Assembly (NCBI GenBank): GCA_963624695.1
Contig: CAVFRH010000083.1
Span: 28,185 to 92,184 of the forward strand
Source: a bacterium
GTDB taxonomy: Bacteria; Bacillota; Clostridia; Lachnospirales; Lachnospiraceae
Length of the DNA: 64,000 nt
Direction of reading: 5' to 3'
Shown here: positions 9,001 through 53,299 of the stretch, in pieces
Layout of the letters: every line of letters starts with the position of its first letter
How positions within the stretch are numbered: position 1 is the first letter of the stretch
Notes under the pieces: generated by a model
Seen by the model: the letters and a program-made list of their open reading frames with translations, nothing else
The model's database searches: none
What the model was told of the DNA's origin: nothing
Translations under genes and position numbers: made by a program

Positions 9001-11670
9001 CTTTAAATATTTTCCTGCAACACGGCTGTCATTTTTATTTAATAACTCGACTGCGTAAAGGAGATCTTCCTCGTCTCCGATCAGAATCGGATCTTCTTCT
9101 GTACCGCTTCCCTCTAATGTAAGGGCTCCTAATTCTTTGAGCTCCGGTCTGCTGTCATCGCCCATACACCAGTAATTTTTGAAATCCCATCCGATTGCTG
9201 TATAGGTATCCTTCGTACTAGCCTCGTCTTCACTTATGCTTTTTCCCTGAGTCGCACTGTCCTTCGTACTGTCCTCCGGTGTGATCACTGTGCCATTTAA
9301 GGTGATGTTCTCGTTTGCAAGGTTGTTTTCTGTTTTTACATTGTATTTTGTATTATACAAACCATAAATACGTCCGATATTTGAGGTGGTTACATTACTT
9401 GGGATTGTAAAGGAACCGCCGCCTGCAACATTTCCCCGAATGGTTAAAGCATTTGGATATCCGCAGATCATGGCTGCTGATACAGTCGTATTTGCAGAGC
9501 TTCCGGTATAAGTAATATTTGCATTTGTATAGCAATTTTCAACAAGTGTCTTTGATCCTGCCGTATAAGCAGTAATACCACCCATCATTGCTCCATAGGC
9601 TGTATTTCCGCCGCAGGAAATGTCTCCGTCAAACCGGCAGTTCTGAATGGTGGATGCCGCATAGGTATTTCTTCCGTTAAGGGCTGCAATACCTGCTGCC
9701 TTGCCAAGTCCTGTGGCTGTTACTGTACTGTTCTTTACCTGTACACAAAAGATCACTCCGCCGGAGGCATTTTCTCCGACAACAACTGCAGCTCCCGAAT
9801 AACTGTTGCTTCCGGAATTTACATCGGAAACAACCTCTGCCTGTTCGAATCTCAGATTTTGAATTGTACCGGTATTTGTTTTTATAAATGCTGTTCTATG
9901 TTCAGTTTTTCCATCCAGAGTCTCTTCCGTCTCTTTAATGGTAAGGCCATAGATGGTATGACCCTTTCCGTCCAGTACTCCGCTAAAGCTGTTTATCATC
10001 GAAAAGCTGTCTGATGTCATCTGAATGTCGGCACTTAATTCATAATATTTGCCGACCCAGGCTTCATCATTTGCATTCAGCTTTTCTGCCATCATGCGAA
10101 GATCTTCATCCGAATCCAGAAGATACGGATTTGTTTCGCTTCCATCACCCTCTATCACAGAGTCTGACACCAGGGCAATTCCTGCTTCTGATGACTTTTC
10201 TATGGTAAAGCTGTCAACCACACTCAGATCTGAGGAACGATAGGTTGTGATCTCGAAGGTGTCCGCTGTGACATTAATCGATGAAAAATTTGCTGTATTT
10301 TCCTGATTCGTAACTGCTGCATACTCTTCTTTTTCATCATTCAGAGTGCTGTATCTGCTGCCGCTGGAGGAATTTGCTGTAATATACAAAACTCCATCCG
10401 AATCATATGCTTTTGCTTCATTCGATACCTTTGGACTTGTTCCGTTCATCATGTAGCTGCGTGTATAGGCATTGTCCTGTCCCATAAGCACAACATTTAC
10501 CCCAAGCTCCGTGAATGTCTGGGATAAATCTTCTCTCATTTGAAGCACTTGGGAATCCTGAGCATTTGATGTATTTCCATAAATGGATTTATTGAACACA
10601 ACAACAGTCCAGTCAATATTTTTCCCGCTGTTTGCTGCGATTGCATTTTCCATAAAGGACTTGTGTGCATCTGTATCTTGATCTTCTGAATTTAAATGAA
10701 GAAATAATACATTATTGTAGGTGTACCAGTAGTCTGAGTTTGCGCTTGCACCCTCTTCCTCTGTTCCGTAGGTATTGGGATTGTTGAAATGGTCGCTGTA
10801 AGCCGGGCTGCTATAGCTCATATAGCTTCCGTCCTCCAGATAATAGCCCAGATCATAATCCCCGATGGAAGTTGCAAGCGGAAGAGATTCCAGAATGGAG
10901 CTTTCCAAAAATCCTGTATACTGTACTTCATCATTTCCGTCACTGACCTGGTTTCCTGCACTTACAATCAGCTCTGCATCTGAATTTTCATTCAGAGCCT
11001 GCTGCAGGGTATTTTCCCAATTTGCCGCATCCGTATCGGTATCTGTTCCGCCTATTTCCGGATCTCCTACAAATATAAAGCTAAACTCAGAATCATTGTC
11101 TCCGGTTTTGAAGCTGTATACCTTTGAACTGGTATCTCCGTTCACAAGGCGGTATACATACTCCGTTCCGGCTTCCAGATTTCCAAGTGTAGCCTTGTTG
11201 CTGTAAAATCCGCTGTCACCGGTCTCTTTTACAGTGGCAGTTACGGTCTCATAATTTTCCGGAAATTTCTCTCCATCCTTTACTGCATACTGCACCTGAC
11301 CTGCTTCCTGAGTGTCAGCATACCATGTGATATTTCGAGTGCTTTCATCTGCCCCTACCGTAAGGGACAAGGCCTTCTGCATTACTTCTGCTTCTGTTTT
11401 ATCCTCTGTTGAACTTTCATTTGATTCTTCCGATGAATCTCCTGTACGTTCAGAAGTTACAGTTGTATCTGCATTTTCTGTATCTTTTGATGTCTCGCTG
11501 CTTTCTGCATCATTTTCGTCTGCCTCTTCTGACTGCTCCCCTAAGGCCTCTGTTCCTGAGCTTTCATTGCTGTCCGCTTCAAGAGCATAGGTCTCTACCG
11601 AGCTCATTGCAGGACTGACTGCCATGGCTGCTGCAAGTACAAATGCCCATATCCGGCTGCTCTTTTTCAT
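3037..11670 (-). CDS. 2877-aa secreted multidomain cell-surface protein
   Basis: Uninterrupted 8.6-kb ORF. Domain order:
- signal peptide MKKSSRIWAFVLAAAMAVSPAMS;
- acidic linker;
- two purple-acid-phosphatase-like modules, each with an FN3-like N-terminal domain (TEYVYRLVNG..YSFKT; TTYYYQVHSG..GTFKT);
- two about 340-aa GLUG-type modules (..FSGVLDGKGHTIYGL.. / ..FTGVLDGAGHSISGL..);
- DUF2341/LamG-like region (IVWVKIPN..GLWVYFGG; HMVTLMYDGLTVTTYVDG);
- calcineurin-like phosphoesterase (DTGDV, WGNHD, LTHH, CGHVDG);
- Ig-like domains including Big_2 (LQLTAIVKPDNAANKNVTWTSSDTNVATVDENGLVTAV);
- Ser-rich stalk;
- C-terminal hydrophobic segment plus KKRKSSK. Confidence 0.9.
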   Translation of the reverse strand: MKKSSRIWAFVLAAAMAVSPAMSSVETYALEADSNESSGTEALGEQSEEADENDAESSETSKDTENADTTVTSERTGDSSEESNESSTEDKTEAEVMQKALSLTVGADESTRNITWYADTQEAGQVQYAVKDGEKFPENYETVTATVKETGDSGFYSNKATLGNLEAGTEYVYRLVNGDTSSKVYSFKTGDNDSEFSFIFVGDPEIGGTDTDTDAANWENTLQQALNENSDAELIVSAGNQVSDGNDEVQYTGFLESSILESLPLATSIGDYDLGYYLEDGSYMSYSSPAYSDHFNNPNTYGTEEEGASANSDYWYTYNNVLFLHLNSEDQDTDAHKSFMENAIAANSGKNIDWTVVVFNKSIYGNTSNAQDSQVLQMREDLSQTFTELGVNVVLMGQDNAYTRSYMMNGTSPKVSNEAKAYDSDGVLYITANSSSGSRYSTLNDEKEEYAAVTNQENTANFSSINVTADTFEITTYRSSDLSVVDSFTIEKSSEAGIALVSDSVIEGDGSETNPYLLDSDEDLRMMAEKLNANDEAWVGKYYELSADIQMTSDSFSMINSFSGVLDGKGHTIYGLTIKETEETLDGKTEHRTAFIKTNTGTIQNLRFEQAEVVSDVNSGSNSYSGAAVVVGENASGGVIFCVQVKNSTVTATGLGKAAGIAALNGRNTYAASTIQNCRFDGDISCGGNTAYGAMMGGITAYTAGSKTLVENCYTNANITYTGSSANTTVSAAMICGYPNALTIRGNVAGGGSFTIPSNVTTSNIGRIYGLYNTKYNVKTENNLANENITLNGTVITPEDSTKDSATQGKSISEDEASTKDTYTAIGWDFKNYWCMGDDSRPELKELGALTLEGSGTEEDPILIGDEEDLLYAVELLNKNDSRVAGKYLKLTADITLTSNFTMIQSFTGVLDGAGHSISGLCIVDEDTSTQKDYLIGFVRTNYGTIKDLAFESPVVKTSVVCNTDSFSGVAVIAGENANGALIHGCRVSNATVEAPNAAKVAGVTALNGRNAKNSATVSNCYVSGTLIGGGTAVSYGTMMGGIASYSSASTIEDCITDVNISCDTSNVSSQTAVVSLSGIVAYINKVTLKGNVAYGGSMNASGEIGSLVTGGIYASVPTYSGSNTIENNLSSKDITINGEAIAEAKANGTLTEKSELEEKQTYTDLGWKFDLEWKMTDEKYPIPKVFSYPENEISRITAAVNSDGIGFSWYSKYEDNTYISISEDSEMKNATKLEAALESSDDQYRFTAKASNLKSDTTYYYQVHSGNIDSEIGTFKTAKEDGAFTFINLAGTDSETVKDAGVAADTMKVALNTVSDASFILHSGSMVDAERGSAAWTEWFYQAQDTFMDTLLAPTVGDEGASVMSQQFNIDTKGYYSFDYSNAHIVVLNTSENESQCISNEQIEWLKEDVTTARGNGQKWIILSVNKGPYTTGSTADNSEVAGLREVLLPVIDELEIDLVLQGQDHILGRTYSLKDGNADKSEYMEMVNGKRFYYSLSDEGTVYFMPGQAGTNMDSQIETMTTKDLDEYIALFSRSEQRGSASNPTQTFASVTVDGDKLTVCTYERKNTDTATMIEAFGIDHEVGNVESLIKEEKWEEARTAYNALTDAQKDEVENYSALLEAENSELQENKAAWLDDSAAERRSILVRNDTFSSFEDKPIRLEIENASSETMKFYTTKGEEIPSEVESYDKNGTSIVWVKIPNIEAESVTGLWVYFGGKASTLDSSEVWSNQYALVEHFNNLGSSSMTDSTGNATGTVTGSLTENDYGADKGAYFKDSKITYDSIGDDYDAFSISAIVSMTDEDMAALTGNKGVIASRFLSTDNDTNSYQMSIDSSTGKLSTSYYAKWWREHNYNTSSWPTNQKTNYSCNISATDGNQHMVTLMYDGLTVTTYVDGVAVKKGRVFLENSIYTDKSLSTVIGAYSDETLTGAFRGTIYDVQISGTGTSEQWESFRYEAYFGNAVTIGKSEHKGDLAINADVVGRSSSMEAGNHLVQGMLSKDATVTIQVGDKTYDLGSMSAGMFTETIDMTGSGEQKVIVSATADGKTEKVELTINLTDTKDPDVEGTDTQSDGESQTLVVNPNESEDENLTTKFYLSEGVDLSSNTMSIATGSTTENTPDQVDPLTCEYTAKELSNETTTTEDGSNPYQIYKISLTDEQKAAANYQLGWHGTSSRQIHAYAYDQAQKTWVKVASTDGTGELSMNIQVEGSQYSQDGNLYLIFFRGLGTDPEDMDSYTPSEGQYDFSMTWTSDVQYTSEFYEDILLQQKKWIAENQDKYNVVMNIDTGDVANAAYLSWEYNWKTVDKAYNVLENASAPYTIVWGNHDYKYVDKYNLLANSDRLYRQYFPLSRFQENLGGWKMVSQNKVTDDMCLTQTIHGSKLMLLTLSYWMDESDISWAKNIVEDPEYADYNIIILTHHFNSGGKITSTYGKKLLSDVIQGHSNVKLLLCGHVDGVDVINPTTGGQQFYSILQDYQDESGTMIYGGNGFLRMLNFDVENNLIYFNTYSPLTGETATVWANGTYSKVDGLYQKNKDEFAISVDLGGSQERTFTTSQLCMTTQSANEVGAESSKGNETVSYKLSDLKAGQNYTWYAVIEDEAGNQTTTALSGFKTAASEEEAKLVGIEIGNAPTKTEYAEGESFSAEGMVVNAVYSDGSRKVITDYTYSPDGALSLSDTAVIVSWNGMTTQVNISVRSQNDSDDTSDSVSGVTITPDNGTLTKAGETLQLTAIVKPDNAANKNVTWTSSDTNVATVDENGLVTAVADGTVTITAVSEDGNITATASITVSIAAADDTSDDGNSGTSDGSAANSTDQKNNASNYKGSSSSSKSSSSSAQSAKGTNTGDTTDARAWGILLVIAAAAATGIYAKKRKSSK
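8135..10150 (-). repeat. tandem duplication of an about 1-kb GLUG-type module inside the giant gene
   Basis: Two consecutive protein modules start with GDGSETNPYLLDSDEDLRMMAEKLNANDEAWVGKYYELSADIQMTS (about nt 10150) and GSGTEEDPILIGDEEDLLYAVELLNKNDSRVAGKYLKLTADITLTS (about nt 9115). They stay colinear to ..YTAIGWDFKNYW / ..YTDLGWKFDLEW. Boundaries are approximate. Confidence 0.6.
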
Positions 11671-21153: not shown

Positions 21154-22755
21154 TCAAAAGCTTGCATAAATCGGCTCTACCGGAAGGTATCCGCTTCCGT
21201 AGGCACCAAAAACGACAATCACCATAATCAAAGCATAGTAACAGACAAAACGCAGAATGATATTTTTTTTCGAGATCAAATCACGAATGGAATTTCCCCT
21301 TTCCTGAATCAGACCGATGATAAAAATCACTGCAGCGGCACAAAGTATGACTCCGAAATCCGCCATGTCCATTCCAAAAGTAAAAAGGCTGCCGTCCTTA
21401 AAGGTTGTAAGATGAAAATCCGTAACAATCTTTCGAAGCATTTTCAGTCCTTCCTTCAGACCATTTGCCCGGAAGATCAGTTCTCCAATGCATACCAGTA
21501 TACTTGTACGAATGATCTGCAAGCACCTGTATGGCAGGCATTTTCTGGAAATGTGAAGCTTTTTACTTATTTTAATTACCAAAGGCTCTATGATATTTCC
21601 AATCAGGATCAATGCAAAATGGTACATACCGAAAAAGATGTAGTGCCAGCCAGCTCCATGCCACAGTCCATTGCATAACCAGACCGCAAACAAGGCAATG
21701 GCACCGGACAGCAGTGGCCCGAAATGATTTCCAAGACGCTTTCTTGCCCTGGCAGTTAATTTTTTCAGTGGCTTTGACATGGATAATGGGAAGAATATAT
21801 AGTCCTTAAACCAGGTTCCCAGGGTAATATGCCATCTTTTCCAGAATTCCGATATGGTTTTGGAAAAAAAAGGTCTTTGAAAGTTCTCCGGCAGAGACAC
21901 CCCAAAGATCTGACTACTTCCCAGGGCAAGATCCATGGTTCCGGAAAAGTCCATATAGAGCTGGAAGGTGTAGCCGACAGCTGCCAAGGCGATCACAAAG
22001 CCATCATATGTGCTGTAATCCGAAAATACATTCTGGATAAACTGATTCAGCCGGTCTGCAACCACCATTTTTTTCATCAGTCCAAATACAATCCGCTGCA
22101 ATCCAAATGTCAGATTTTTGTATTGAATGTGCTCTGCCTCCCAGAGCTTTTCGGCTGTATCGGAATATCTGCAGATGGGTCCCTCCATGATCTGAGGAAA
22201 AAAGCTGATAAAAAGGGCCAACCGCATTAAATTGGTATCTGCAGGGATTTTCCTTCTGTATACATCGATCAGGTAAGCAAGTACCTGCATGGTATAAAAA
22301 GAAATTCCGATGGGAAGAAGATAAGAAGGCACTGTAAGGCTGAACGAAAGCCCCAGCATTGCAAAAAGTTTGTTGATATTGGTTGCAAAAAAGGAACTGT
22401 ATTTTAAAAAGAGTAAAATTCCAAGGTGCAGACAAACTGCAAATACAAGGATTCCCTTTAATTTCTTCTGATACCTTGCCTTTTGCTGTTTTTTCTCTTC
22501 ACGGCTTACATTCTCTAAGGCTCTGTCACATTCCTTTTGTACGGTAGACAGCCACAGACCAATGTGATGAGCTGAAAGAATGGAAAAAAGAAGATAGGCA
22601 ATCAGTTTTCCGCTGACTGCCCAGAAAAACAGCCAGCTGAAAAGCAAAATCACCCATCTTCGTATTTTCTGCGGTGTAAAGGCGTACAGTCCGATGGTAA
22701 GTGGAAGCAGCAGGCAGAAATATGGAAAGGAAAAGTAGGATGATATGGATAGCAT
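21154..22755 (-). CDS. MBOAT-family membrane O-acyltransferase (DltB/AlgI-like)
   Basis: Multi-pass, 533 aa. Motifs FWKRWHITLGTWFKDYIF and NGLWHGAGWHYIFFGMYH (conserved His) match the DltB/AlgI family. Confidence 0.85.
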   Translation of the reverse strand: MLSISSYFSFPYFCLLLPLTIGLYAFTPQKIRRWVILLFSWLFFWAVSGKLIAYLLFSILSAHHIGLWLSTVQKECDRALENVSREEKKQQKARYQKKLKGILVFAVCLHLGILLFLKYSSFFATNINKLFAMLGLSFSLTVPSYLLPIGISFYTMQVLAYLIDVYRRKIPADTNLMRLALFISFFPQIMEGPICRYSDTAEKLWEAEHIQYKNLTFGLQRIVFGLMKKMVVADRLNQFIQNVFSDYSTYDGFVIALAAVGYTFQLYMDFSGTMDLALGSSQIFGVSLPENFQRPFFSKTISEFWKRWHITLGTWFKDYIFFPLSMSKPLKKLTARARKRLGNHFGPLLSGAIALFAVWLCNGLWHGAGWHYIFFGMYHFALILIGNIIEPLVIKISKKLHISRKCLPYRCLQIIRTSILVCIGELIFRANGLKEGLKMLRKIVTDFHLTTFKDGSLFTFGMDMADFGVILCAAAVIFIIGLIQERGNSIRDLISKKNIILRFVCYYALIMVIVVFGAYGSGYLPVEPIYASF

Positions 22756-22756
22756 C

Positions 22757-22987
22757 TTATTCCTCCCTGAGTCTTGTGATCATCATCCACAAATTCTCTG
22801 CAGAATTAAAATTGTCCGGAACAATCTCAACCGTTGGAATCGTGATGTCATATTCCTCTTCAAGCTCTGAAACCAGGGAGATGATTGCCAGTGAATCAAG
22901 ATAGTGATCATCTATCAGGGTTGTACATGTGCTGTAATCTACCTCCGGCTGGATCTCCTCTAAAATCTCAATCAGTTTTTTGTCCAT
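22757..22987 (-). CDS. acyl / D-alanyl-type carrier protein
   Basis: 76 aa, acidic, with LDSLAIISLVSELEEEY containing the DSL phosphopantetheine-attachment serine. It ends 1 nt before the MBOAT start. Confidence 0.8.
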   Translation of the reverse strand: MDKKLIEILEEIQPEVDYSTCTTLIDDHYLDSLAIISLVSELEEEYDITIPTVEIVPDNFNSAENLWMMITRLREE

Positions 22988-23041
22988 GATCTGATACCTC
23001 TTTTCTTAAATTATATAATGATGTTTCTTTCAGAGCATTCA

Positions 23042-24268
23042 TTAAAATGCATAAGGCGACAGTCTCATCCTCTCTGATGTAGCATCCGCTGTCATATCCG
23101 GTGTATTCAGAAGATCTGCTTCTATGGGTTTTCTGACTACCAGATAGCTTTCATCTTCATTTAAAAGCACAATTTCCGGAAGATCCCTGCTTAAGAAAAG
23201 CGAAATTCCCTCTGTCATACAGTAAGCTCCTGCATTTTGAAATGCCAGAAGATCTCCTATTTGAAGTCCCGAAAGCGGTGCACGTTTTACTAAGATGTCA
23301 TTGGTCGTACAGAGAGAACCGCAAATATTCCATTCCTTTCTTTCGCCTCCCCTTATAGATGGAAGGAGTGAAAATTTCGGACGCTTCATTGCCATCGTAT
23401 GGCCGTAGTAAACAATCTGATGCATTCCGCCGTCTATGATGGCATAATTCTCACCCTGATTTTGCTTCACATCTACCACCCTGGTGATGTAGCTTCCGCA
23501 GCTTGCTGCAAGACTTCGTCCAAGCTCAAGGGTTAGCTCTCCGTCGTATTTCATAGAAGAAAGAAGGTCTGCAAAGGAACTGAAAAAAGCTTCTTCATCG
23601 AAGTCCTCCCCTTCAAAATAATTAAATGGAAGTCCGGGTCCCAGCTCCAGCTTGGGCATTTTAAAGTGATGTTCCTCATACAGTTCTTCCAGATATGCAT
23701 CCAGCATTGCAATCTCTCTTGTAAGCTTTTTGATGGAATTTTTCTGAGTTCCGGAGAAATATTGAACACCGTATATTTCAAGCCATGGGTCGTTTTGATA
23801 AGTTTCCACAAGTCTTGTCAGATCTTCCCTGTCGATTCCGAACTGATTTCCGCATGTAAGGCGCAGGAGTACCTTTATTTTTTTCTTATATTTATTTGCT
23901 GCTTCCTGAAGAAGCTGAAACTGACCTATGGATTCTGCCGTATAGCAACCGATTTCTTCTCCATCCGCAATCAGCTTTTCTGTCTCTTTTTTTTCTTTGT
24001 AAACGCCGGATATGACATATTTTTTCTTTGAAATCCCGAGCCTTTGACAGATTCGATATTCTCCCGGGGAACATATTTCAAAGTATTCGAGCTGATCTTC
24101 CAGTGCCTTCAAAATAAAGGGATTTGCCTTTACTGCATAGCAAAGCTCCACCTTCTTTGGCAGTTTTTCCCTTAAAAACCGTACTCTTTTCTTTAATTCC
24201 TTTAGATTAAAAACATACATTGGGCTTTGCTCTTCTTTTGCAATCGCCATCAGTATTTTTTCATTCAT
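23042..24268 (-). CDS. fold-type III PLP-dependent decarboxylase (Orn/DAP/Arg decarboxylase family 2)
   Basis: N-terminal barrel motif CYAVKANPF (PLP lysine), GPGLP, and C-terminal CGSLCTTNDIL resembling the DAP/ornithine decarboxylase active-site Cys region. The start overlaps the upstream gene's stop (ATGA). Confidence 0.8.
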   Translation of the reverse strand: MNEKILMAIAKEEQSPMYVFNLKELKKRVRFLREKLPKKVELCYAVKANPFILKALEDQLEYFEICSPGEYRICQRLGISKKKYVISGVYKEKKETEKLIADGEEIGCYTAESIGQFQLLQEAANKYKKKIKVLLRLTCGNQFGIDREDLTRLVETYQNDPWLEIYGVQYFSGTQKNSIKKLTREIAMLDAYLEELYEEHHFKMPKLELGPGLPFNYFEGEDFDEEAFFSSFADLLSSMKYDGELTLELGRSLAASCGSYITRVVDVKQNQGENYAIIDGGMHQIVYYGHTMAMKRPKFSLLPSIRGGERKEWNICGSLCTTNDILVKRAPLSGLQIGDLLAFQNAGAYCMTEGISLFLSRDLPEIVLLNEDESYLVVRKPIEADLLNTPDMTADATSERMRLSPYAF

Positions 24269-43309: not shown

Positions 43310-43345
43310 GCTGTCGCATGAAATGCATCATGCGGCAGCTTTTCT
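43310..43345 (+). terminator. rho-independent terminator after the phosphatase gene
   Basis: gctgtcgcatg / loop / catgcggcagc followed by TTTTCT. Confidence 0.55.
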
Positions 43346-43372
43346 AAATAATAAGATTTTTTTCTTTTATTT

Positions 43373-43401
43373 TTCTAATTTTTTAGAATTCTTTTCTAGA
43401 A
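43373..43401 (+). promoter_or_regulatory. candidate enhancer (UAS) palindromes upstream of the sigma-54 promoter
   Basis: TTCTAA-tttt-TTAGAA (43373-43388) followed by TTCTAGAA (43394-43401), 30-55 nt upstream of the -24 element. Confidence 0.35.
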
Positions 43402-43429
43402 ATCCCCTTTAAATGCTGAAATTCTAAGT

Positions 43430-43445
43430 TGGCACTTACTTTGCA
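43430..43445 (+). promoter_or_regulatory. sigma-54 (-24/-12) promoter
   Basis: TGGCAC-ttact-TTGCA is an exact match to the TGGCAC-N5-TTGCA consensus. It lies 80 nt upstream of the CitMHS ATG, and a GAFTGA-type activator gene sits next to the operon. Confidence 0.75.
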
Positions 43446-43525
43446 TTATATACAGGCAAATACATAATGAAATCCCTGGCCACGGATATTATGAAAATTC
43501 AAAGAAGGGAGATAAGAAACATTTT

Positions 43526-44860
43526 ATGTTAGCACTTATCGGTACATTAACTATCGTAATCATGCTCGTCCTGATTATGACCAAAAAACTACAGACATTG
43601 CTGGCACTGATCATTGTTCCAATCGTTGGCTGCCTCGTTGCCGGTTACACCGGGCTGATCACCGTGGAGGACGGAAGCTTTTCCCTGTCAACCATGGGTG
43701 ATTTTATCACCTCCGGTTTAAAGAGCATCGCACCAACGGGCGTTATGTTTATTTTTGCGATTTTATTCTTCGGCATTCTGACAGATGCCGGTACCTTTGA
43801 TCCGATTATCAAAGGCATTTTAAAAGTCGTAGGAAAAAACCCGGTTAAGATCTGTGTCGGAACGGTTATTCTTGCAAGCCTTGTTCACTTAGATGGCTCC
43901 GGTGCTGTTACCTTCCTGATCGCAATCCCTGCTTTGCTTCCTTTGTATGACAAGCTTGGAATGCGCAGAACCACTCTTGCTACCCTGGTTGCCCTTGGCG
44001 CCGGTGTTATGAACATGCTCCCATGGGGCGGACCTACCCTGCGTGCAGTAACCGCACTGGACACCACCATAAACGATCTGTATATCCCTATGGTTCCGGC
44101 CCAGATTGCAGGTATTGTCTTCATTATCCTGGTTGCAATTTTCCTTGGAAAGAAGGAAAAGAAACGTCTTGGCGATTCACTTGACAAAATCGAACTGGAC
44201 GACTCCACCTCAGCAAAAATCGAGGAAAACAGCTTAAAGCGTCCGAAGCTTTTTGTTTTCAATATTGCACTGATCATTCTGGCAGTTGTTGTTTTGATCA
44301 CATCCCTTTTGCCACCGGCTGCTGTATTTATGATTGCAACCGCAATTGCACTGCTGGTAAACTATCCGGACATCAAAACTCAGAAAGAGCTGGTCGATTC
44401 TCACGCAAAATCAGCCCTGATGATGGCAAGTATGCTTTTTGCAGCCGGTTCCTTTATCGGCATTATGCAGGGTTCCGGTATGCTGACTGCCATGAGCAGC
44501 GCTCTGGTAAGCCTGATTCCGGCTTCTCTTGGAAATGTACTTCCAACCATTATCGGTGTGATTTCCATGCCTTTGAGCTTACTGTTTGACCCGGATTCCT
44601 ATTACTATGGTGTTATGCCGGTTGTTGCCAATGCAGCAAGCGCCCTGGGTGTCGATCCTCTTATGATCGGCCGTGCTTCCATCATTGGACAGATGACCAC
44701 CGGATTCCCGATCAGCCCGCTGACCGGAGCTACCTTCCTTTTGACAGGTCTGGCAGGCATCGACCTTGGAGAGCATCAGAAGCATACCTTCATTTACTCA
44801 TTTTTAACCAGTATTGTAATGTTAATTGTAGCAATCATTATCGGTGCAATCAGCATTTAA
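43526..44860 (+). CDS. CitMHS-family (metal-citrate / organic anion) transporter
   Basis: N-terminus MLALIGTLTIVIMLVLIMTKKLQTLLALIIVPIVGCLVAG closely resembles the CitM/CitH N-termini. 444 aa, multi-pass. Confidence 0.8.
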   Translation: MLALIGTLTIVIMLVLIMTKKLQTLLALIIVPIVGCLVAGYTGLITVEDGSFSLSTMGDFITSGLKSIAPTGVMFIFAILFFGILTDAGTFDPIIKGILKVVGKNPVKICVGTVILASLVHLDGSGAVTFLIAIPALLPLYDKLGMRRTTLATLVALGAGVMNMLPWGGPTLRAVTALDTTINDLYIPMVPAQIAGIVFIILVAIFLGKKEKKRLGDSLDKIELDDSTSAKIEENSLKRPKLFVFNIALIILAVVVLITSLLPPAAVFMIATAIALLVNYPDIKTQKELVDSHAKSALMMASMLFAAGSFIGIMQGSGMLTAMSSALVSLIPASLGNVLPTIIGVISMPLSLLFDPDSYYYGVMPVVANAASALGVDPLMIGRASIIGQMTTGFPISPLTGATFLLTGLAGIDLGEHQKHTFIYSFLTSIVMLIVAIIIGAISI

Positions 44861-44891
44861 AAAATTCAACATTTTAAGAAAGGCATAAACA

Positions 44892-46244
44892 ATGAAAAAA
44901 ATCAGAATCGGAAGCGGCGCCGGTTATGCCGGAGATCGTATTGAGCCGGCAGTCGAGCTCATGGAAAAAGGAAACCTTGACTACATTATCTTTGAATGTC
45001 TTGCAGAGCGTACCATTGCCATCGGTCAGAAGGATAAGCTGGCTGACCCGACAAAGGGCTACAATCAGCTGCTGGAAGCCAGAATGAACAAAATCTTAAA
45101 GCTGGCAAAAGACAATCACATTAAAGTCATTACAAATATGGGTTCTGCAAATCCTCTGGCTGCTATGAACAAAACAGTGGAAATTGCCAAAGAACTGGGC
45201 GTTACCGGATTAAAGATTGCTGCAGTAACCGGAGATGACATTTTACCTCAAATCGACCAGTATTATGACAATCCTGTTTTAGAGCTTGACTGCAAGCTGG
45301 GCGATATGAAAGATTCTCTCCTGTCCACAAATGTATACCTTGGCTGCGACGGCATTTTAGAGGCTCTGGAAAATGGTGCTGATATTGTTATTACCGGCCG
45401 TGTATCGGATCCGGCCCTTTCCATTGCGCCACTGGTACATGAGTTTGGCTGGAACATCGACGACAATCCGGACCAGATGGGTCAGGCTGTCCTGGTTGGA
45501 CACCTGCTGGAATGTGCCGGTCAGGTAACAGGCGGATATTATGCAGACCCTGGCTTCAAGGATGTACCGGATCTTGACCGTCTTGGCTTCCCTCTGATTG
45601 AGATTGATGAAACTGGTCATTTCACCGTATCAAAGGTAGAAGGCTCCGGCGGACTTGTATGCGAGGATACCTGCAAAGAGCAGATGATCTATGAAATCCA
45701 CAATCCGGCTGCTTACCTTACTCCGGATGCTATTGCTGATTTTTCACATGTCACCTTTACCCAGCAGGGAAAAGACATTGTCGCTGCTGCAAATGCAACC
45801 TCTCACGGAAAACCGGAAACCTTAAAGGTAAGCATCGGTTACCGCGACTGCTTCACAGGAGAAGGCGAGATCAGCTACGGCGGACCAAATTCCATGGCTC
45901 GTGCAAAGCTGGCTGCAGATATTGTAGAAAAACGACTGAAACTCATTGGCTGTGAAATGGAAGAATTCCGTATCGACTACATTGGATTCAATTCTCTCTA
46001 CAAAGATAAAATTTCCAGTCAGTACGCACCGGAAGTATTTCCGGAAATCCGTCTTCGTGTCAGCGGCCGTACCAAGGACAAGGCAAATGCTGCTCTCATT
46101 GCAAATGAAGTAGAAGCTCTTTACACAAACGGCCCAGCCGGCGGAGCAGGTGCAACGAAAAAAGTATCTGAAATTGTATCGATCTGCTCCATCTTTGTTC
46201 CAAGAGACATTGTTGATATTCAGGTAAGCTATCAGGAGGTCTAA
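44892..46244 (+). CDS. DUF1446 (AtuA-like) family protein
   Basis: N-terminus IRIGSGAGYAGDRIEPAVELMEKGNLDYIIFECLAERTIA is characteristic of the AtuA/DUF1446 family. Confidence 0.75.
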   Translation: MKKIRIGSGAGYAGDRIEPAVELMEKGNLDYIIFECLAERTIAIGQKDKLADPTKGYNQLLEARMNKILKLAKDNHIKVITNMGSANPLAAMNKTVEIAKELGVTGLKIAAVTGDDILPQIDQYYDNPVLELDCKLGDMKDSLLSTNVYLGCDGILEALENGADIVITGRVSDPALSIAPLVHEFGWNIDDNPDQMGQAVLVGHLLECAGQVTGGYYADPGFKDVPDLDRLGFPLIEIDETGHFTVSKVEGSGGLVCEDTCKEQMIYEIHNPAAYLTPDAIADFSHVTFTQQGKDIVAAANATSHGKPETLKVSIGYRDCFTGEGEISYGGPNSMARAKLAADIVEKRLKLIGCEMEEFRIDYIGFNSLYKDKISSQYAPEVFPEIRLRVSGRTKDKANAALIANEVEALYTNGPAGGAGATKKVSEIVSICSIFVPRDIVDIQVSYQEV

Positions 46245-46248
46245 GATC

Positions 46249-46548
46249 ATGAAATTAAAAGAAATCGCACATTCAAGAACCGGTGATAAAGGAGATATTT
46301 CAAATATTTCTGTCATCGCCTACAAAGCAGAAGATTATCCTTTATTAAAAGAAAAGGTAACCTGTGAAAAAGTCAAAGAATACTTCGGTGAAATCTGCAA
46401 AGGAGAGGTCGTTCGCTACGACATCGACAGCCTCTGCGCCATGAATTTTGTTCTGGACAAAACCTTAGGCGGCGGCGTTACCCGCTCCCTGGCTTTGGAC
46501 AAACACGGAAAAGCCCTTGGAATGGCTTTGATGGAAATGGACATCTAA
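46249..46548 (+). CDS. DUF4387-like small protein, the usual partner of DUF1446
   Basis: 99 aa, MKLKEIAHSRTGDKGDISNISVIAY. It starts 4 nt after the DUF1446 stop. Confidence 0.65.
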   Translation: MKLKEIAHSRTGDKGDISNISVIAYKAEDYPLLKEKVTCEKVKEYFGEICKGEVVRYDIDSLCAMNFVLDKTLGGGVTRSLALDKHGKALGMALMEMDI

Positions 46549-46565
46549 CCTTTATAAACCTTAAC

Positions 46566-46606
46566 AATCGGAAAGAGAGATTACTCATCTCCCTTTCCGA
46601 TTTTGT
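46566..46606 (+). terminator. terminator of the sigma-54 operon, overlapping the 3' end of the convergent activator gene
   Basis: aatcggaaagagaga / ttactc / atctccctttccgatt followed by TTTG. Confidence 0.5.
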
Positions 46607-47915
46607 TATAGAGGGTTGCCAGAGAAATTCCAAGGGCCTTGGCTGCCTTTCTTTTCCCCTCCAGTGTATTTCCAAACTGCTCCAGTGCTGACATAATCTG
46701 CTGCCTTTCGTACTTGCGCACACGCTCTGCCAGAGTGGGGATTTTACTTCCGTTTCCTTCGCTCATGATGGTAGGCGGCAGGTCCTCTATGTCAATCTGA
46801 TTTTCATTTGTCATTAGAGCCGCATATTCCAGTATATTTTCCAGCTCCCGCACATTTCCCGGCCAGTTATAGCCTAGCAAAATTTCCTTTGCTGCTTCCG
46901 TTATTCCCATTTTTTTCTTATTCTGAATGGAAACCTTTTTCATATGATTTTCCAGCAGAGGGGCAATGTCTCCTTTTCTCTCCCGCAGCGGTGTCAAATA
47001 AAGAGGAACGGTGGCAATTCGATAATAGAGATCCTGTCGGAACTTCTTCTCTTCTACGTATTTTTTCAGATCTACGTTGCAGGCCCCAATGATCCGGACA
47101 TCGATTTCTATTTCTTTCGTTCCTCCGACTCTTCGGATCTTGTGTTCCTGAAGTGCCCGAAGCAGCTTTGCCTGCAGTGGATAATGCATCTCTGAGATTT
47201 CATCTAAAAATAAGGTCCCCTTATTTGCGATCTCAAATAATCCGGCTTTTCCACCCTTTTGTGCTCCGGTAAAGGCTCCATTTTCATAGCCAAACAGCTC
47301 GCACTCCAGCATATTTTCCGACAAAACAGCACAATTAATGGCAATAAAGGGATAGTTTCTCCGCTCACTTTCATTGTGTATGGCCTGTGCGTAAAGTTCT
47401 TTTCCGCATCCGCTCTCGCCCTGTAGCAGCACGGAAAGATCTGAATGTGCTACCTTCTTTGCCCTTTCAATGAAATTCATTGTGATCTCACTGCCATATA
47501 CAATCGAATCAAAATCATATCTGGTTCCGTTTACTTCCTTCATTCTTTCATCCAGGTATGACTCTTTTTCATTTAATTCTGCCAGCATTTTTGCCAGAAA
47601 TCTGGCACTTTCCAAAAAGGTAACGGTTGAAATTCCACCTGCAACCTTTCCATTTTCCCATATAGGATACATGCTGGCGAAGTATTCTTTTCCGTTTTCT
47701 ACCCGGTGCACCTGCTCCCGCATTTTTCCCGTTTTCATTACTCCCGGAAGCATAGCACCCGGACGAATTTCTATTAAAGGTCTTCCTTTTACATCATCTA
47801 ACTTATGCTCCACAAACTCTGCGTATGCATCATTAAAAAATACAATTTTTACTTCTTCGTCTACAATCAAAATGCCTTCTTTTACAGCATTTAGAATATT
47901 CTCGATCTTTTTCAT
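46581..47915 (-). CDS. sigma-54-dependent transcriptional activator (PAS - AAA+ - Fis-type HTH)
   Basis: Walker A GESGCGKE, the sigma-54 contact loop GAFTGA, Walker B FLDEISEM, VRELEN, and C-terminal HTH AAKALGISLATLYNKI. Confidence 0.9.
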   Translation of the reverse strand: MKKIENILNAVKEGILIVDEEVKIVFFNDAYAEFVEHKLDDVKGRPLIEIRPGAMLPGVMKTGKMREQVHRVENGKEYFASMYPIWENGKVAGGISTVTFLESARFLAKMLAELNEKESYLDERMKEVNGTRYDFDSIVYGSEITMNFIERAKKVAHSDLSVLLQGESGCGKELYAQAIHNESERRNYPFIAINCAVLSENMLECELFGYENGAFTGAQKGGKAGLFEIANKGTLFLDEISEMHYPLQAKLLRALQEHKIRRVGGTKEIEIDVRIIGACNVDLKKYVEEKKFRQDLYYRIATVPLYLTPLRERKGDIAPLLENHMKKVSIQNKKKMGITEAAKEILLGYNWPGNVRELENILEYAALMTNENQIDIEDLPPTIMSEGNGSKIPTLAERVRKYERQQIMSALEQFGNTLEGKRKAAKALGISLATLYNKIGKGDE

Positions 47916-48063
47916 TTCTTACCCAAATCCTTATACCCTTTTTGCAGATCTCTTAGCGCCACTTTCTCTGCATCACTATTATAGACAAACTCAGCTATTG
48001 TATTCAATATTCAAAAAAGAGAAAATGGCCACTGTACAAGGTGTACAGCAGCCATTCTTATCT

Positions 48064-49083: not shown

Positions 49084-49683
49084 TCATTCCATAAGCACAT
49101 TCTTTCCCCTTGCACTGTACAGGTCGATATGGTCAAGATCCGCATACCCTTGTGAAAAGGCCGGAAACAAAAAGCCGCAGACCGCTTTTCCAGGCTCATA
49201 TTCTCCCTGCAAAGGGCTTATGGTACAGATGAGATATTTGTAGACATGCTCCGATTCTCCCTGATATTCTTTCGCAGAGGATTTTTTCGGGATATCGTAG
49301 ACTCCATAGAACAAAAAGATAGCATAGGACTTCTTTGGCTTATATTTTTCCATAACCAGGTCATAAAAGACATCCAGAAGCGCATCATTTTTTAGTTCAC
49401 ACTCCCGAAGCGCCATGAGAAGCTTCCATATATCAGAGTATCTCTTATCATCTTCCGAGAAATAATGCTCCTGAAGCTTTTCATTTGTGCTTGCGAATGG
49501 AACACTCTTTGCGAGAAGCAGATTTTTCTCTCTTTCACTTTCTGTAAGCTTCAAAAATGCCCGGTTAAAGCTCCCATCAAATTCTCCCTTTTCGTCCACA
49601 TAACAGCCTGCAATTCTTGAAAAATGACTTCGCTTCACCGTCATCCTTCTTGTAAGCTCCAGCATATCCTCACGGTTTATCAT
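49084..49683 (-). CDS. hypothetical protein, probably DUF4317 family
   Basis: N-terminus MINREDMLELTRRMTVKRSHFSRIAGCYVDEKGEF resembles DUF4317 proteins of Clostridia. This is from memory, not verified. Confidence 0.45.
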   Translation of the reverse strand: MINREDMLELTRRMTVKRSHFSRIAGCYVDEKGEFDGSFNRAFLKLTESEREKNLLLAKSVPFASTNEKLQEHYFSEDDKRYSDIWKLLMALRECELKNDALLDVFYDLVMEKYKPKKSYAIFLFYGVYDIPKKSSAKEYQGESEHVYKYLICTISPLQGEYEPGKAVCGFLFPAFSQGYADLDHIDLYSARGKNVLME

Positions 49684-49749
49684 ACTCTTTCTCCTTTTCG
49701 TCGGTGCAAAATCCCATACTAAAATTTTAGAACTGCTTTAGAACTGCCT

Positions 49750-51644: not shown

Positions 51645-52136
51645 TCAAAAATCATTTCTTTTATTTTTCAGGACTGTTTCAAAATAATTCAATGACGGTC
51701 TTTTTGCTCTTTTTGTAATTTCTCCTGCCTCTTTTACTTCATCCTCTGTTGGCTTATATTTTTCTAAGATTTCATCTATTTTTTCTTTTTCCGCCTGGGC
51801 AGGAAGTCTTTTTGAATTCCTTATATATTTTAGTATAGCTGTATATTTTTTAAAACTTTTTTTTAATGTAAGCTCCGCCTCTATCCGATCCCTGATTCCT
51901 TTTTTCTCTAAGATGTTCGCAATTGGATAAAGATAATCTAATTTTTCTGCTCCTCTTTCATAGATAAATTCCAAGAGCCATTTGATCAGCTCCGGATCAA
52001 AGGCATAGATAAGGAACATATCTTCTATTACCCTGCTGTCGTAAGCCGTGACCTTACGCTTCCACAGCCTGGAAACATTTCGAAGTACATCGATTATTTC
52101 CCCTTTGGAAAAATCGTAAAAATCATGATTTTTCAT
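51645..52136 (-). CDS. DnaD-domain-like replication accessory protein (tentative)
   Basis: Overlaps the Rep stop by 4 nt. The segment DPELIKWLLEFIYERGAEKLDYLYPIANILEKKGI has the shape of a DnaD/DnaB_2 C-terminal domain. Confidence 0.45.
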   Translation of the reverse strand: MKNHDFYDFSKGEIIDVLRNVSRLWKRKVTAYDSRVIEDMFLIYAFDPELIKWLLEFIYERGAEKLDYLYPIANILEKKGIRDRIEAELTLKKSFKKYTAILKYIRNSKRLPAQAEKEKIDEILEKYKPTEDEVKEAGEITKRAKRPSLNYFETVLKNKRNDF

Positions 52137-53299
52137 GATTCAATGAATTCCGCATCAAGCATCTCATTTGCTGCGTCTGCATACTCCTGATATGGATCTG
52201 CACTGTCTCCCCGAACAAGGTGTATGTCACTCTCCTCATTCAAGTCCCAGCCTTCCCTCAGCCCTGCAATCATCCAGGCAACCAAATCTTTTATCTCCGC
52301 CTGCTTTAAGGCCATCTCGTAGATTTTTTCGATTCTGTTAAAATTGCCTGCCGCTGCTTTTATAATGGCGGTCTCATCCCGCACGGACATTCCCTCCGGG
52401 ATCATGTCCTCAAATTTGATCAGCATATCTGCATCTACCTTAAAGCTTTCGATGATCGGCATGGAATAATTTGGATTTCTTGAGATTTCAAAATCAATTG
52501 CCACTACCTTTGCTCCCGCTCCGCCTCTGACCGGGGTACATTCTACATGAATGTCAGTGATCGCATTGATCTCGTCTACCGCCGGAAGCAATACACGGCG
52601 TCTAAAGTCTCTCCAGTTTATGTTTTTCTTCGCATCCGGACCGGCAATTTTATTTACAATGTATTCTGAATTTTTTCCGGCTTCCAGGGCGGACTGAACC
52701 TTGTCATCGTTAATGTCTACCTGTCCTGTGTACACCATAAAATCATATAAGTCATAGCGGACTGTTACATGATCCTGTCCCGACTTGATCTTGTAAAGAT
52801 GCGTGCGTAGTATTTCGTATATTCTGTAGGCCGAATTTGACCTTCCCTTTGAAAAAGACAGAAGGATGGACAGCTTCATGGGCGTGTAATTGTTTGACAA
52901 TTTGAAAATATGTTCTCGGATGCTCTTATCAAAGGAAACTGTGAAAACTCCATCCTTGTATTCGCATTCCCTTACAATAACCGACATTTTAAAATTATTT
53001 CGTGTCCTGTCCTGAATGACAAAGAAGTTCTGCATCAGATGCTTGGCACTGTACTTCAGCTTTGTATAAATGGATTTGCTGTCTTCCTCATTTAAAAGGG
53101 CCTTCAGTTCCGCTGCAGAAAAGGAAACCGTAAGGTCCTGATCGTTTCCGTAGCTTCTGTTTTGCAGGCGGCTGATGGACAACACCAAAAGCTTGCTTTC
53201 CAGCAATGTTGCCTTATATTTTGAACTGATAAATTCATTGGACCGAGTAACTACCGTATCATTTCCGCTCAGTGATAATATTTCCTTCTTCTCTTTCAA
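52133..53299 (-). CDS. plasmid-type replication initiator (RepB/Rep_3-like)
   Basis: N-terminus VVTRSNEFISSKYKATLLESKLLVLSISRLQ is typical of Rep_3 initiators. The gene is directly preceded by an iteron field. Confidence 0.75.
   Translation of the reverse strand: MKEKKEILSLSGNDTVVTRSNEFISSKYKATLLESKLLVLSISRLQNRSYGNDQDLTVSFSAAELKALLNEEDSKSIYTKLKYSAKHLMQNFFVIQDRTRNNFKMSVIVRECEYKDGVFTVSFDKSIREHIFKLSNNYTPMKLSILLSFSKGRSNSAYRIYEILRTHLYKIKSGQDHVTVRYDLYDFMVYTGQVDINDDKVQSALEAGKNSEYIVNKIAGPDAKKNINWRDFRRRVLLPAVDEINAITDIHVECTPVRGGAGAKVVAIDFEISRNPNYSMPIIESFKVDADMLIKFEDMIPEGMSVRDETAIIKAAAGNFNRIEKIYEMALKQAEIKDLVAWMIAGLREGWDLNEESDIHLVRGDSADPYQEYADAANEMLDAEFIES

Follow-up and report, generated by a model that had tools for sequence, protein, structure and literature searches.

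A gene module from a bacterium of the family Lachnospiraceae is described here, located at positions 43,373 to 47,915 of a 64,000-nucleotide stretch of DNA (GenBank assembly GCA_963624695.1, contig CAVFRH010000083.1, positions 28,185 to 92,184; this whole 64-kb stretch is called the window below) and made up of a CitMHS-family transporter, a large AtuA/DUF1446 protein with its small partner, and a convergently encoded sigma-54 enhancer-binding protein (EBP). It is very probably a sigma-54/EBP-controlled uptake-plus-lyase module, and the enzyme pair forms a widespread orthogroup of its own within the CmlAB/AtuA lyase family; the substrate predicted for it is new, and the pairing of regulator and operator is defined here for the first time. 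For the substrate, 3-hydroxy-3-methylglutarate (HMG), yielding acetoacetate and acetate, has close to an even chance of being correct, and the fuller proposal, that the pair is a one-step HMG lyase independent of coenzyme A (CoA) and acyl carrier protein (ACP) and forms, together with the CitMHS importer, an unrecognised and widely distributed route, is advanced tentatively and with slightly less than even confidence. In the proposed mechanism, the activator gene would be transcribed singly, probably from a sigma-70-type promoter, and its product would bind the palindrome TTCTAA-N4-TTAGAA directly upstream of the operon; upon sensing of an inducer by the PAS domain, the AAA+ domain would remodel sigma-54 RNA polymerase at TGGCAC-N5-TTGCA and turn the operon on. 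The CitMHS protein would then bring in a hydroxy-dicarboxylic acid, and the 450-aa and 99-aa proteins, acting as a two-subunit CmlAB-like lyase that uses neither CoA nor ACP, would split R1-C(OH)(R2)-CH2-COO- into a ketone and acetate; HMG would give acetoacetate and acetate, the acetoacetate being handled by enzymes presumably encoded elsewhere in the genome and, in many relatives, by enzymes of the same operon. The inducer and the lyase activity are inferred, as are the substrate and what is made from it.

The chemistry is suggested by the fold of the two proteins. The large subunit spans almost all of the AtuA profile PF07287 (residues 4-446 on profile positions 1-436 of 437), and AlphaFold2 models of the large (pLDDT 88.9, pTM 0.84) and the small subunit (pLDDT 84.5), compared with the PDB by Foldseek, each returned one match below E=1e-3 and no other: 9evf_A for the former (E=8.5e-27, TM-score 0.70, full length) and 9evf_B for the latter (E=2.7e-4, TM-score 0.69, probability 1.00). 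Entry 9evf, released in 2025-10, is titled 'Citramalate lyase - ADP - pyruvate complex'; both chains are also present in 9erq, and the two entries name them CmlA, an AtuA family protein and citramalate lyase subunit A, and CmlB, a DUF4387 protein and subunit B. Sequence searches of the PDB with either protein, or with a profile of the large subunit, gave nothing useful (CmlA at just E=0.22), so the relationship was revealed by fold comparison only. The original prediction, made from the letters of this stretch alone, had stated that the function of DUF1446/DUF4387 is not established, which 9erq and 9evf render outdated at the family level; it had also called the 99-aa protein a DUF4387 partner, which is correct for structure and role, as CmlB is its sole fold match, but not for Pfam membership, as the protein belongs to PF23544 only and does not match PF14330 (DUF4387) even at E<=10, whereas E. 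coli CmlB matches PF14330 with 134 bits. From these models, the large subunit is predicted to be the catalytic subunit of a CmlA-like carbon-carbon lyase, and the small subunit, as modelled, is the structural counterpart of CmlB.

Neighbourhood counts here and below refer to 80 loci with relatives of the large subunit (numbered with the prefix L), drawn from species-representative genomes, in which at least 590 such relatives occur among Firmicutes, Fusobacteria, Proteobacteria, Bacteroidota and others. The orthogroup is tight: the 80 relatives, which come from Firmicutes, Fusobacteria, Proteobacteria, Bacteroidota, Desulfobacterota and Spirochaetota, all share 52% identity or more, and among the 5151 representatives of 50%-identity clusters that make up the AtuA family (E<=1e-3), only about 7 reach 50% identity with the window protein. 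The small subunit adjoins the large one in every locus (80/80), and a natural fusion of 551 aa (P0090) contains both PF23544 and PF07287. In a 'Bulleidia sp.' metagenome-assembled contig (L001:9-3195, aligned with window 43372-46547), the operon DNA is 82.8% identical to that of the window and blastn similarity ends at the operon boundaries; the proteins are 96% (large subunit), 98% (small subunit) and 89% (CitMHS) identical, and because the substitutions within both enzyme genes are mostly synonymous, the comparison indicates strong purifying selection on them.

The relation to CmlAB itself is remote. Pairwise BLASTP of the large subunit with E. coli O157 CmlA gives 25% identity over 182 aa (E=1e-5) and hhalign a probability of 92%; the small subunit has no BLASTP similarity to E. 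coli CmlB, from which it also differs in Pfam family, and a tree of the 80 relatives places CmlA far outside them. By these sequence comparisons the window pair is a distant, separate orthogroup rather than a pair of CmlAB orthologs. Residues with a conservation of 95% or more in the clade that also occur in CmlA include E39, R170, D173, P174, E207, C208, Y267, E268 and P272, which I infer to be candidate active-site residues. CmlAB is described as splitting citramalate directly into pyruvate and acetate, and canonical AtuA is tentatively an acetate-releasing lyase acting on 3-hydroxy-3-alkylglutaryl-CoA; a plausible common family chemistry would be R1-C(OH)(R2)-CH2-COO- to R1-CO-R2 plus acetate.

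In E. coli O157:H7, ECs_0760 matches the CmlA chain (970 bits over 456 aa) and ECs_0759 the CmlB chain (193.5 bits over 104 aa); the two genes directly follow the one for methylaspartate ammonia-lyase. ECs_0760 is the DUF1446 gene for which Kronen et al. (2015) had no explanation; what becomes of citramalate in the pathway was not known then. RefSeq names ECs_0759 and ECs_0760 of strain Sakai (L081:31934-33618) 'acyl-CoA synthetase' and '3-methylaspartate ammonia-lyase', respectively, and because their products closely match the CmlB and CmlA chains, these names are by sequence wrong. NCBIfam has no model for CmlA, for CmlB or for the window orthogroup.

The substrate proposal comes from the genes that accompany the pair in its relatives. 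Genes for acetoacetate or acetoacetyl-CoA enzymes lie beside it in 21 of the 80 loci, mostly directly downstream and in some upstream (e.g., L025): atoD in 17, atoA in 16, thiolase (acetyl-CoA acetyltransferase) in 10, hbd in 3, and the acetoacetate-decarboxylase (ADC) family and crt/bcd/etf in 2 each. The original statement that no citrate lyase or other known partner is present is therefore true of the window and fails across the relatives, where AtoDA, thiolase, the ADC family and hbd/crt/bcd/etf recur; equally, these partners speak against citrate and for a substrate that yields acetoacetate. Because the acetoacetate-linked loci are scattered over the whole tree, and include the nearest sister groups of the window (L004, L005, L008 and L010), the orthogroup looks isofunctional. 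An acetate-releasing lyase with acetoacetate as its second product leads to HMG as the proposed substrate.

Two other explanations must be weighed against this pattern. It is quite improbable that the pair is a second, divergent citramalate lyase, converting imported or mesaconate-derived citramalate to pyruvate and acetate: although both subunits have in CmlAB their sole characterised structural homolog, and pyruvate and acetate would need no extra genes, in keeping with the three-gene form of the operon, the orthogroup is very distant, a separate clade to which CmlA is a far outgroup and whose small subunit is in another Pfam family, and the acetoacetate partners would be left unexplained. 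In addition, no glutamate mutase, methylaspartate ammonia-lyase (mal) or mesaconase gene was present among the neighbour clusters of the 80 loci or among the proteins scanned, with no search aimed specifically at them. A CoA-thioester lyase, for which a CoA-transferase would make HMG-CoA or another 3-hydroxy-3-alkylglutaryl-CoA from which the pair frees acetate, leaving acetoacetyl-CoA, is rather unlikely, though conceivable at loci that have atoDA. It would agree with the tentative assignment of AtuA as a CoA-ester:acetate lyase and with the AtoDA-type CoA-transferases and thiolases that follow the pair in 17 and 10 loci, and its net stoichiometry equals that of the HMG proposal; however, neither the window operon nor that of most other loci includes a CoA-transferase, the characterised homolog (Cml) works on the free acid, and in two loci the enzyme is accompanied by an acetoacetate-decarboxylase-family protein, which depends on acetoacetate in free form.

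The HMG proposal also meets an observed physiology in Snodgrassella. LysR, CitMHS, the pair, atoDA and thiolase are all encoded in each of the four genomes retrieved, and the Snodgrassella AtoD exceeds the NCBIfam equivalog cut-off for acetate CoA-transferase subunit alpha. Both in vivo and in vitro, S. alvi uses up 3-hydroxy-3-methylglutarate and excretes acetate as it does so, and the first steps of this use are not annotated (Quinn et al., 2024); the literature on bacterial growth on free HMG yielded nothing about genes. This physiology fits an HMG lyase. It also bears on the suggestion that the pair retains the CmlAB fold with chemistry other than a lyase's, for instance as an isomerase, hydratase or decarboxylase of 3-oxoglutarate, 3-methylglutaconate or a similar citrate-like acid, which is very improbable: the low sequence identity to CmlA, the size and diversity of the AtuA family and the fact that 3-oxoglutarate decarboxylation would also yield acetoacetate all speak for it, but the nearly invariant clade residues common to CmlA (R170, D173, P174, E207, C208, Y267, E268 and P272), the retained two-subunit architecture and the release of acetate from 3-hydroxy-3-methylglutarate by Snodgrassella fit a lyase.

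Esterase-type hydrolases are the second recurrent kind of enzyme beside the pair, and no other catabolic enzyme recurs in the 80 loci. CocE/NonD proteins are found in 9 (L003-L007, L034, L038, L067 and L080), and PF00756 esterases and a metallo-beta-lactamase-fold protein also lie beside the pair (L045:4638-10507; L028:5603-9751); the pair is often joined to such hydrolases in loci without CitMHS, and some of these loci carry oligopeptide-type ABC importers, a GH3 glycosidase, YdjC or a phosphotransferase-system (PTS) EIICB component. One may speculate that at these loci the acid is released from esters, such as acylated glycosides. Leucine- or atu-type carboxylase or hydratase neighbours were considered for Herbaspirillum, Paraburkholderia and Snodgrassella and ruled out, the genes there being unrelated and encoding a succinate dehydrogenase/fumarate reductase-type flavoprotein that binds flavin adenine dinucleotide (FAD), patatin, a major facilitator superfamily (MFS) transporter, an enolase-superfamily protein, GntR, transketolase and phosphoglycerate kinase (PGK).

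The transporter is a full-length member of its family that scores above the curated cut-offs of both models (PF03600, 120 bits against 31.9; TIGR00784, 429 against 259.7), and the coupling of transporter and enzymes on which the original prediction had built recurs, with a CitMHS ortholog of 40-89% identity directly upstream of the pair in 58 of the 80 loci, spanning several phyla. The CitMHS protein is predicted to be the substrate importer, and gene context suggests that its cargo is a hydroxy-dicarboxylate other than metal-citrate; because HMG differs from citrate only in having a methyl group where citrate has its central carboxylate, CitMHS would be a reasonable HMG importer. It is unlikely, yet worth considering, that CitMHS instead imports (metal-)citrate and that the pair is a CoA-independent citrate lyase, forming oxaloacetate and acetate and replacing the classical CitDEF complex. 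Membership in CitMHS/TIGR00784 along the full length agrees with this, citrate shares with citramalate, on which the structural homolog acts, the combination of an alpha-hydroxy-carboxylate and CH2-COO-, and the products need no dedicated downstream genes, as in the minimal three-gene form of most loci. However, genes of citrate fermentation, such as those for oxaloacetate decarboxylase or malate dehydrogenase, do not recur beside the pair, and the partners that do recur are specific for acetoacetate or acetoacetyl-CoA, which citrate cannot supply. Furthermore, Snodgrassella, which grows on citrate as sole carbon source and is described as relying mainly on the tricarboxylic acid (TCA) cycle, nevertheless has its pair linked to atoDA and thiolase.

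Several points weigh against HMG cleavage as the function of the module. Characterised CitMHS members transport metal-citrate. Citramalate carries an alpha-hydroxy-carboxylate that HMG lacks, and if CmlA needs this group, citrate or citramalate would be the better fit. Identity to CmlA is 15-25%, at which the substrate and even the chemistry could differ, and 9evf contains bound ADP. Acetoacetate-handling genes are missing nearby in 59 of the 80 loci, the window included; the 64-kb window has no homolog of atoD, atoA, thiolase or CocE/NonD (ADC and hbd were not among the searches) and, in a search limited to the window, no RpoN-box protein. Literature searches gave no published function for the orthogroup; the primary CmlAB paper, which may already assign the subfamily, lay outside their scope.

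In the regulatory part of the module the original prediction was borne out: an exact TGGCAC-N5-TTGCA at 43430-43445 precedes the three-gene operon, the content of that operon (CitMHS transporter, 450-aa DUF1446 protein and 99-aa partner) is confirmed by family models, and the GAFTGA-containing activator with PAS, AAA+ and helix-turn-helix (HTH) domains is encoded convergently directly after it. The promoter element is the single exact match within the 64 kb, in which 0.04 would be expected by chance, and has its -24 GG and -12 GC elements at canonical spacing; a run of three open reading frames (ORFs) on the + strand starts about 80 bp 3' of it, and because the gaps between them are just 31 bp and then 4 bp, a single transcript for all three genes fits the layout. 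The stop codons of the operon and the activator gene are 32 bp apart, and a hairpin that covers this gap and overlaps the final codons of the activator gene (0 of 200 shuffles fold equally well) is likely a bidirectional terminator. Among the relatives, TGGCA-N6-TTGC(A/T/G) is found about 50-110 bp before the first operon gene in about 20 loci (L001, L008, L011-L022, L024-L026, L037 and L038). L013 has three sigma-54 promoter matches, at 6338 (before CitMHS), 7940 (before the large subunit) and 11492 (after atoA), the second with its own palindrome at 7823, suggesting internal or additional EBP-dependent promoters at that locus.

Also unique in the window is the palindrome TTCTAA-N4-TTAGAA (0.02 expected by chance), which starts 57 bp upstream of the -24/-12 element. 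Exact copies are present in 23 of the 80 loci, one to three per locus and always intergenic immediately upstream of the operon. Regulators with the HTH motif GISLATLYNK are encoded in 24 loci, 21 of which carry the exact palindrome, and loci without such a regulator lack it, except for two with variant HTH motifs; palindrome, sigma-54 promoter and regulator are found together in about 20 related loci. Because the palindrome tracks the HTH motif across loci, it is likely the binding site of the activator, and I take the whole to be a real sigma-54/EBP unit backed by phylogenetic footprinting, with operator binding and promoter activity as predictions from conservation of the sequence. The shared promoter and activator site likewise support the original idea of a compact, dedicated sigma-54/EBP module for an imported organic acid. 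A degenerate copy of the palindrome starts 31 bp upstream of the exact one, and neighbouring exact copies in relatives are mostly 29-31 bp apart, once 21 bp; this copy may be a second activator site, while taken alone it could be chance. One further sequence, TACTAAAATTTTAGAA at 49717-49732, has a single mismatch to the operator and lies upstream of a DUF4317 gene (49084-49683, - strand), with no -24/-12 element near it, and is probably a chance occurrence. The operator palindrome and the regulator-operator pair are newly recognised here; neither TTCTAA-N4-TTAGAA nor its target operon was found in the text or the accessible supplement of the 2019 reconstruction of Clostridiales sigma-54 regulons (PMC6615313).

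The activator combines PAS (PF00989), Sigma54_activat (PF00158, 223 bits), AAA_lid (PF25601) and HTH_8 (PF02954) domains with a GAFTGA motif, the Walker A sequence GESGCGKE and a C-terminal Fis-type HTH, LGISLATLYNK, and is the only GAFTGA protein in the window; its best NCBIfam match is PrdR-like at 418 bits, below the cut-off of 795 bits. Its putative sigma-70-like promoter lies just downstream of the terminator (48058-48022) of a BaxI-like neighbour gene, and its score is the joint best in the region scanned, tied with a site inside the EBP gene. Activator orthologs of 40-85% identity adjoin the module in about 21 loci, and the EBPs next to it in L008 and L010 are 34-36% identical with a different HTH. 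The type of regulator varies: EBPs are found in about 23 loci, mostly of Firmicutes, Fusobacteria and Desulfobacterota, and divergent LysR-type regulators in about 20, mostly proteobacterial. Separately, four Lachnospiraceae-type loci encode, upstream of the enzyme pair, proteins of about 160 aa in which the PAS domain of the EBP runs straight into its HTH (LGISLATLYNK), the entire AAA+ module being deleted (L002:155-637, L003:7328-7810, L006:7364-7894 and L007:6866-7360); they retain the TTCTAA-N4-TTAGAA operator and have no sigma-54 promoter match, and these proteins look like an EBP converted to a sigma-54-independent regulator. L020:1508-1837 clusters with them and comprises the PAS part only.

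Table 1. Features of the module and its flanks, in window coordinates
Feature	Position	Strand	Details
Degenerate second palindrome copy, TTCTAAATAATAAGAT	43342-43357	.	2 mismatches to TTCTAA-N4-TTAGAA
Predicted upstream activator sequence, perfect palindrome, TTCTAATTTTTTAGAA (TTCTAA-N4-TTAGAA)	43373-43388	.	sole exact window match
Sigma-54 (-24/-12) promoter, TGGCACTTACTTTGCA (TGGCAC-TTACT-TTGCA)	43430-43445	+	exact TGGCAC-N5-TTGCA consensus
CitMHS-family secondary transporter	43526-44860	+	444 aa; PF03600 E=1.2e-34; TIGR00784 429 bits
AtuA/DUF1446 large subunit	44892-46244	+	450 aa; PF07287 508 bits
Small subunit, AtuA_ferredoxin	46249-46548	+	99 aa; PF23544 124 bits
Hairpin between the convergent genes, followed by TTTTGTT	46566-46603	.	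dG -26.1 kcal/mol, z -6.4
Sigma-54 enhancer-binding protein	46581-47915	-	444 aa; PAS + Sigma54_activat + AAA_lid + HTH_8
Sigma-70-like promoter of the activator gene, TTGAAT-18-TATAAT	47978-48007	-	consensus match only, 10/12

Elsewhere in the window, a Rep3-type replication initiator (PF01051 and PF21205) is encoded at 52133-53299 (- strand), 4 kb from the module, and either this region or the contig as a whole may derive from a plasmid or contain an integrated element. An ORF of 2877 aa at 3037-11670 (- strand), with purple-acid-phosphatase N-terminal, PhoD_N, metallophosphoesterase and Big_2 domains, probably encodes a giant surface phosphoesterase. A cluster at 21154-27575 (- strand), composed of an MBOAT acyltransferase, an Orn/DAP-decarboxylase-like pyridoxal phosphate (PLP) enzyme and an AMP-binding enzyme beside a histidine kinase, is reminiscent of a Dlt-like surface-modification system.

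Only one member of the AtuA/DUF1446 family has apparently been characterised, and very recently. A specific assignment would give a name to hundreds of presently unnamed gene pairs, and the high conservation across phyla together with a dedicated transporter suggests an important, unnamed nutrient. If the HMG proposal is true, it would supply the missing entry step of 3-hydroxy-3-methylglutarate use in the honey-bee symbiont Snodgrassella, an explicit metabolic gap, add a second substrate class for a new type of thioester-independent lyase, and mean that some gut and soil Firmicutes couple the pair to esterases and glycosidases that free HMG from acylated plant glycosides. Furthermore, the PAS-EBP with TTCTAA-N4-TTAGAA and the -24/-12 element would provide a clean set for reporter-based inducer screening in anaerobes.

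The module resembles several known systems in part. With the sigma-54/EBP operons of Clostridia (PrdR-type) it shares the PAS-AAA+(GAFTGA)-HTH architecture, one to three palindromic upstream sites and a -24/-12 promoter of consensus type, whereas the window activator scores far below the PrdR cut-off (418 against 795 bits) and lacks the N-terminal part of PrdR. With the AtoDAB or ketone-body operons and HMG-CoA lyase (LiuE/HMGCL) it would share the predicted passage of HMG carbon through acetoacetate to acetyl-CoA, and in relatives the pair shares its operon with AtoD, an AtoA-like subunit B and thiolase; however, the window operon has no ato genes. HMG-CoA lyase belongs to a different family, acts on a thioester and releases acetyl-CoA, whereas the window enzyme is predicted to use the free acid and to release acetate.

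AtuA of the Pseudomonas atu cluster shares PF07287, which the window protein matches over its full length, and the name of PF23544, 'AtuA ferredoxin-like domain', indicates that the small window protein corresponds to a domain of AtuA. The reaction tentatively given to AtuA, from 3-hydroxy-3-isohexenylglutaryl-CoA to acetate and a 3-oxoacyl-CoA, is moreover a higher homolog of the HMG cleavage proposed here. AtuA has its parts fused into one chain of about 600 aa (a Thauera homolog has 615 aa), whereas the window has two genes; it is thought to act on a CoA ester, and its cluster includes geranyl-CoA carboxylase under the AtuR repressor, whereas the scanned proteins of the window and of the neighbourhoods included no carboxylase or atu-like neighbour.

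The closest likeness is to CmlAB (9erq/9evf; ECs_0760/ECs_0759 of E. coli O157:H7; Cml of Raoultella planticola), which likewise has adjacent genes for proteins of about 450 and about 100 aa, a large subunit in Pfam AtuA with the motifs GR..DP, LEC and YE...P that the window protein also has, and chains whose folds the models of the two window subunits match (TM-scores 0.70 and 0.69), and the chemistry is likely the same, namely the freeing of acetate from a tertiary 3-hydroxy acid with no need of CoA or ACP. The two systems have only 15-25% identity and differ in the Pfam family of the small subunit (PF14330 in CmlAB, PF23544 in the window) and in their surroundings, with glutamate mutase, methylaspartate ammonia-lyase, the mesaconase FumD and an SDF-family transporter around CmlAB and, by contrast, CitMHS and a sigma-54 activator here, joined in relatives by acetoacetate enzymes, and they would differ in substrate, which is citramalate there and is predicted to be HMG here.

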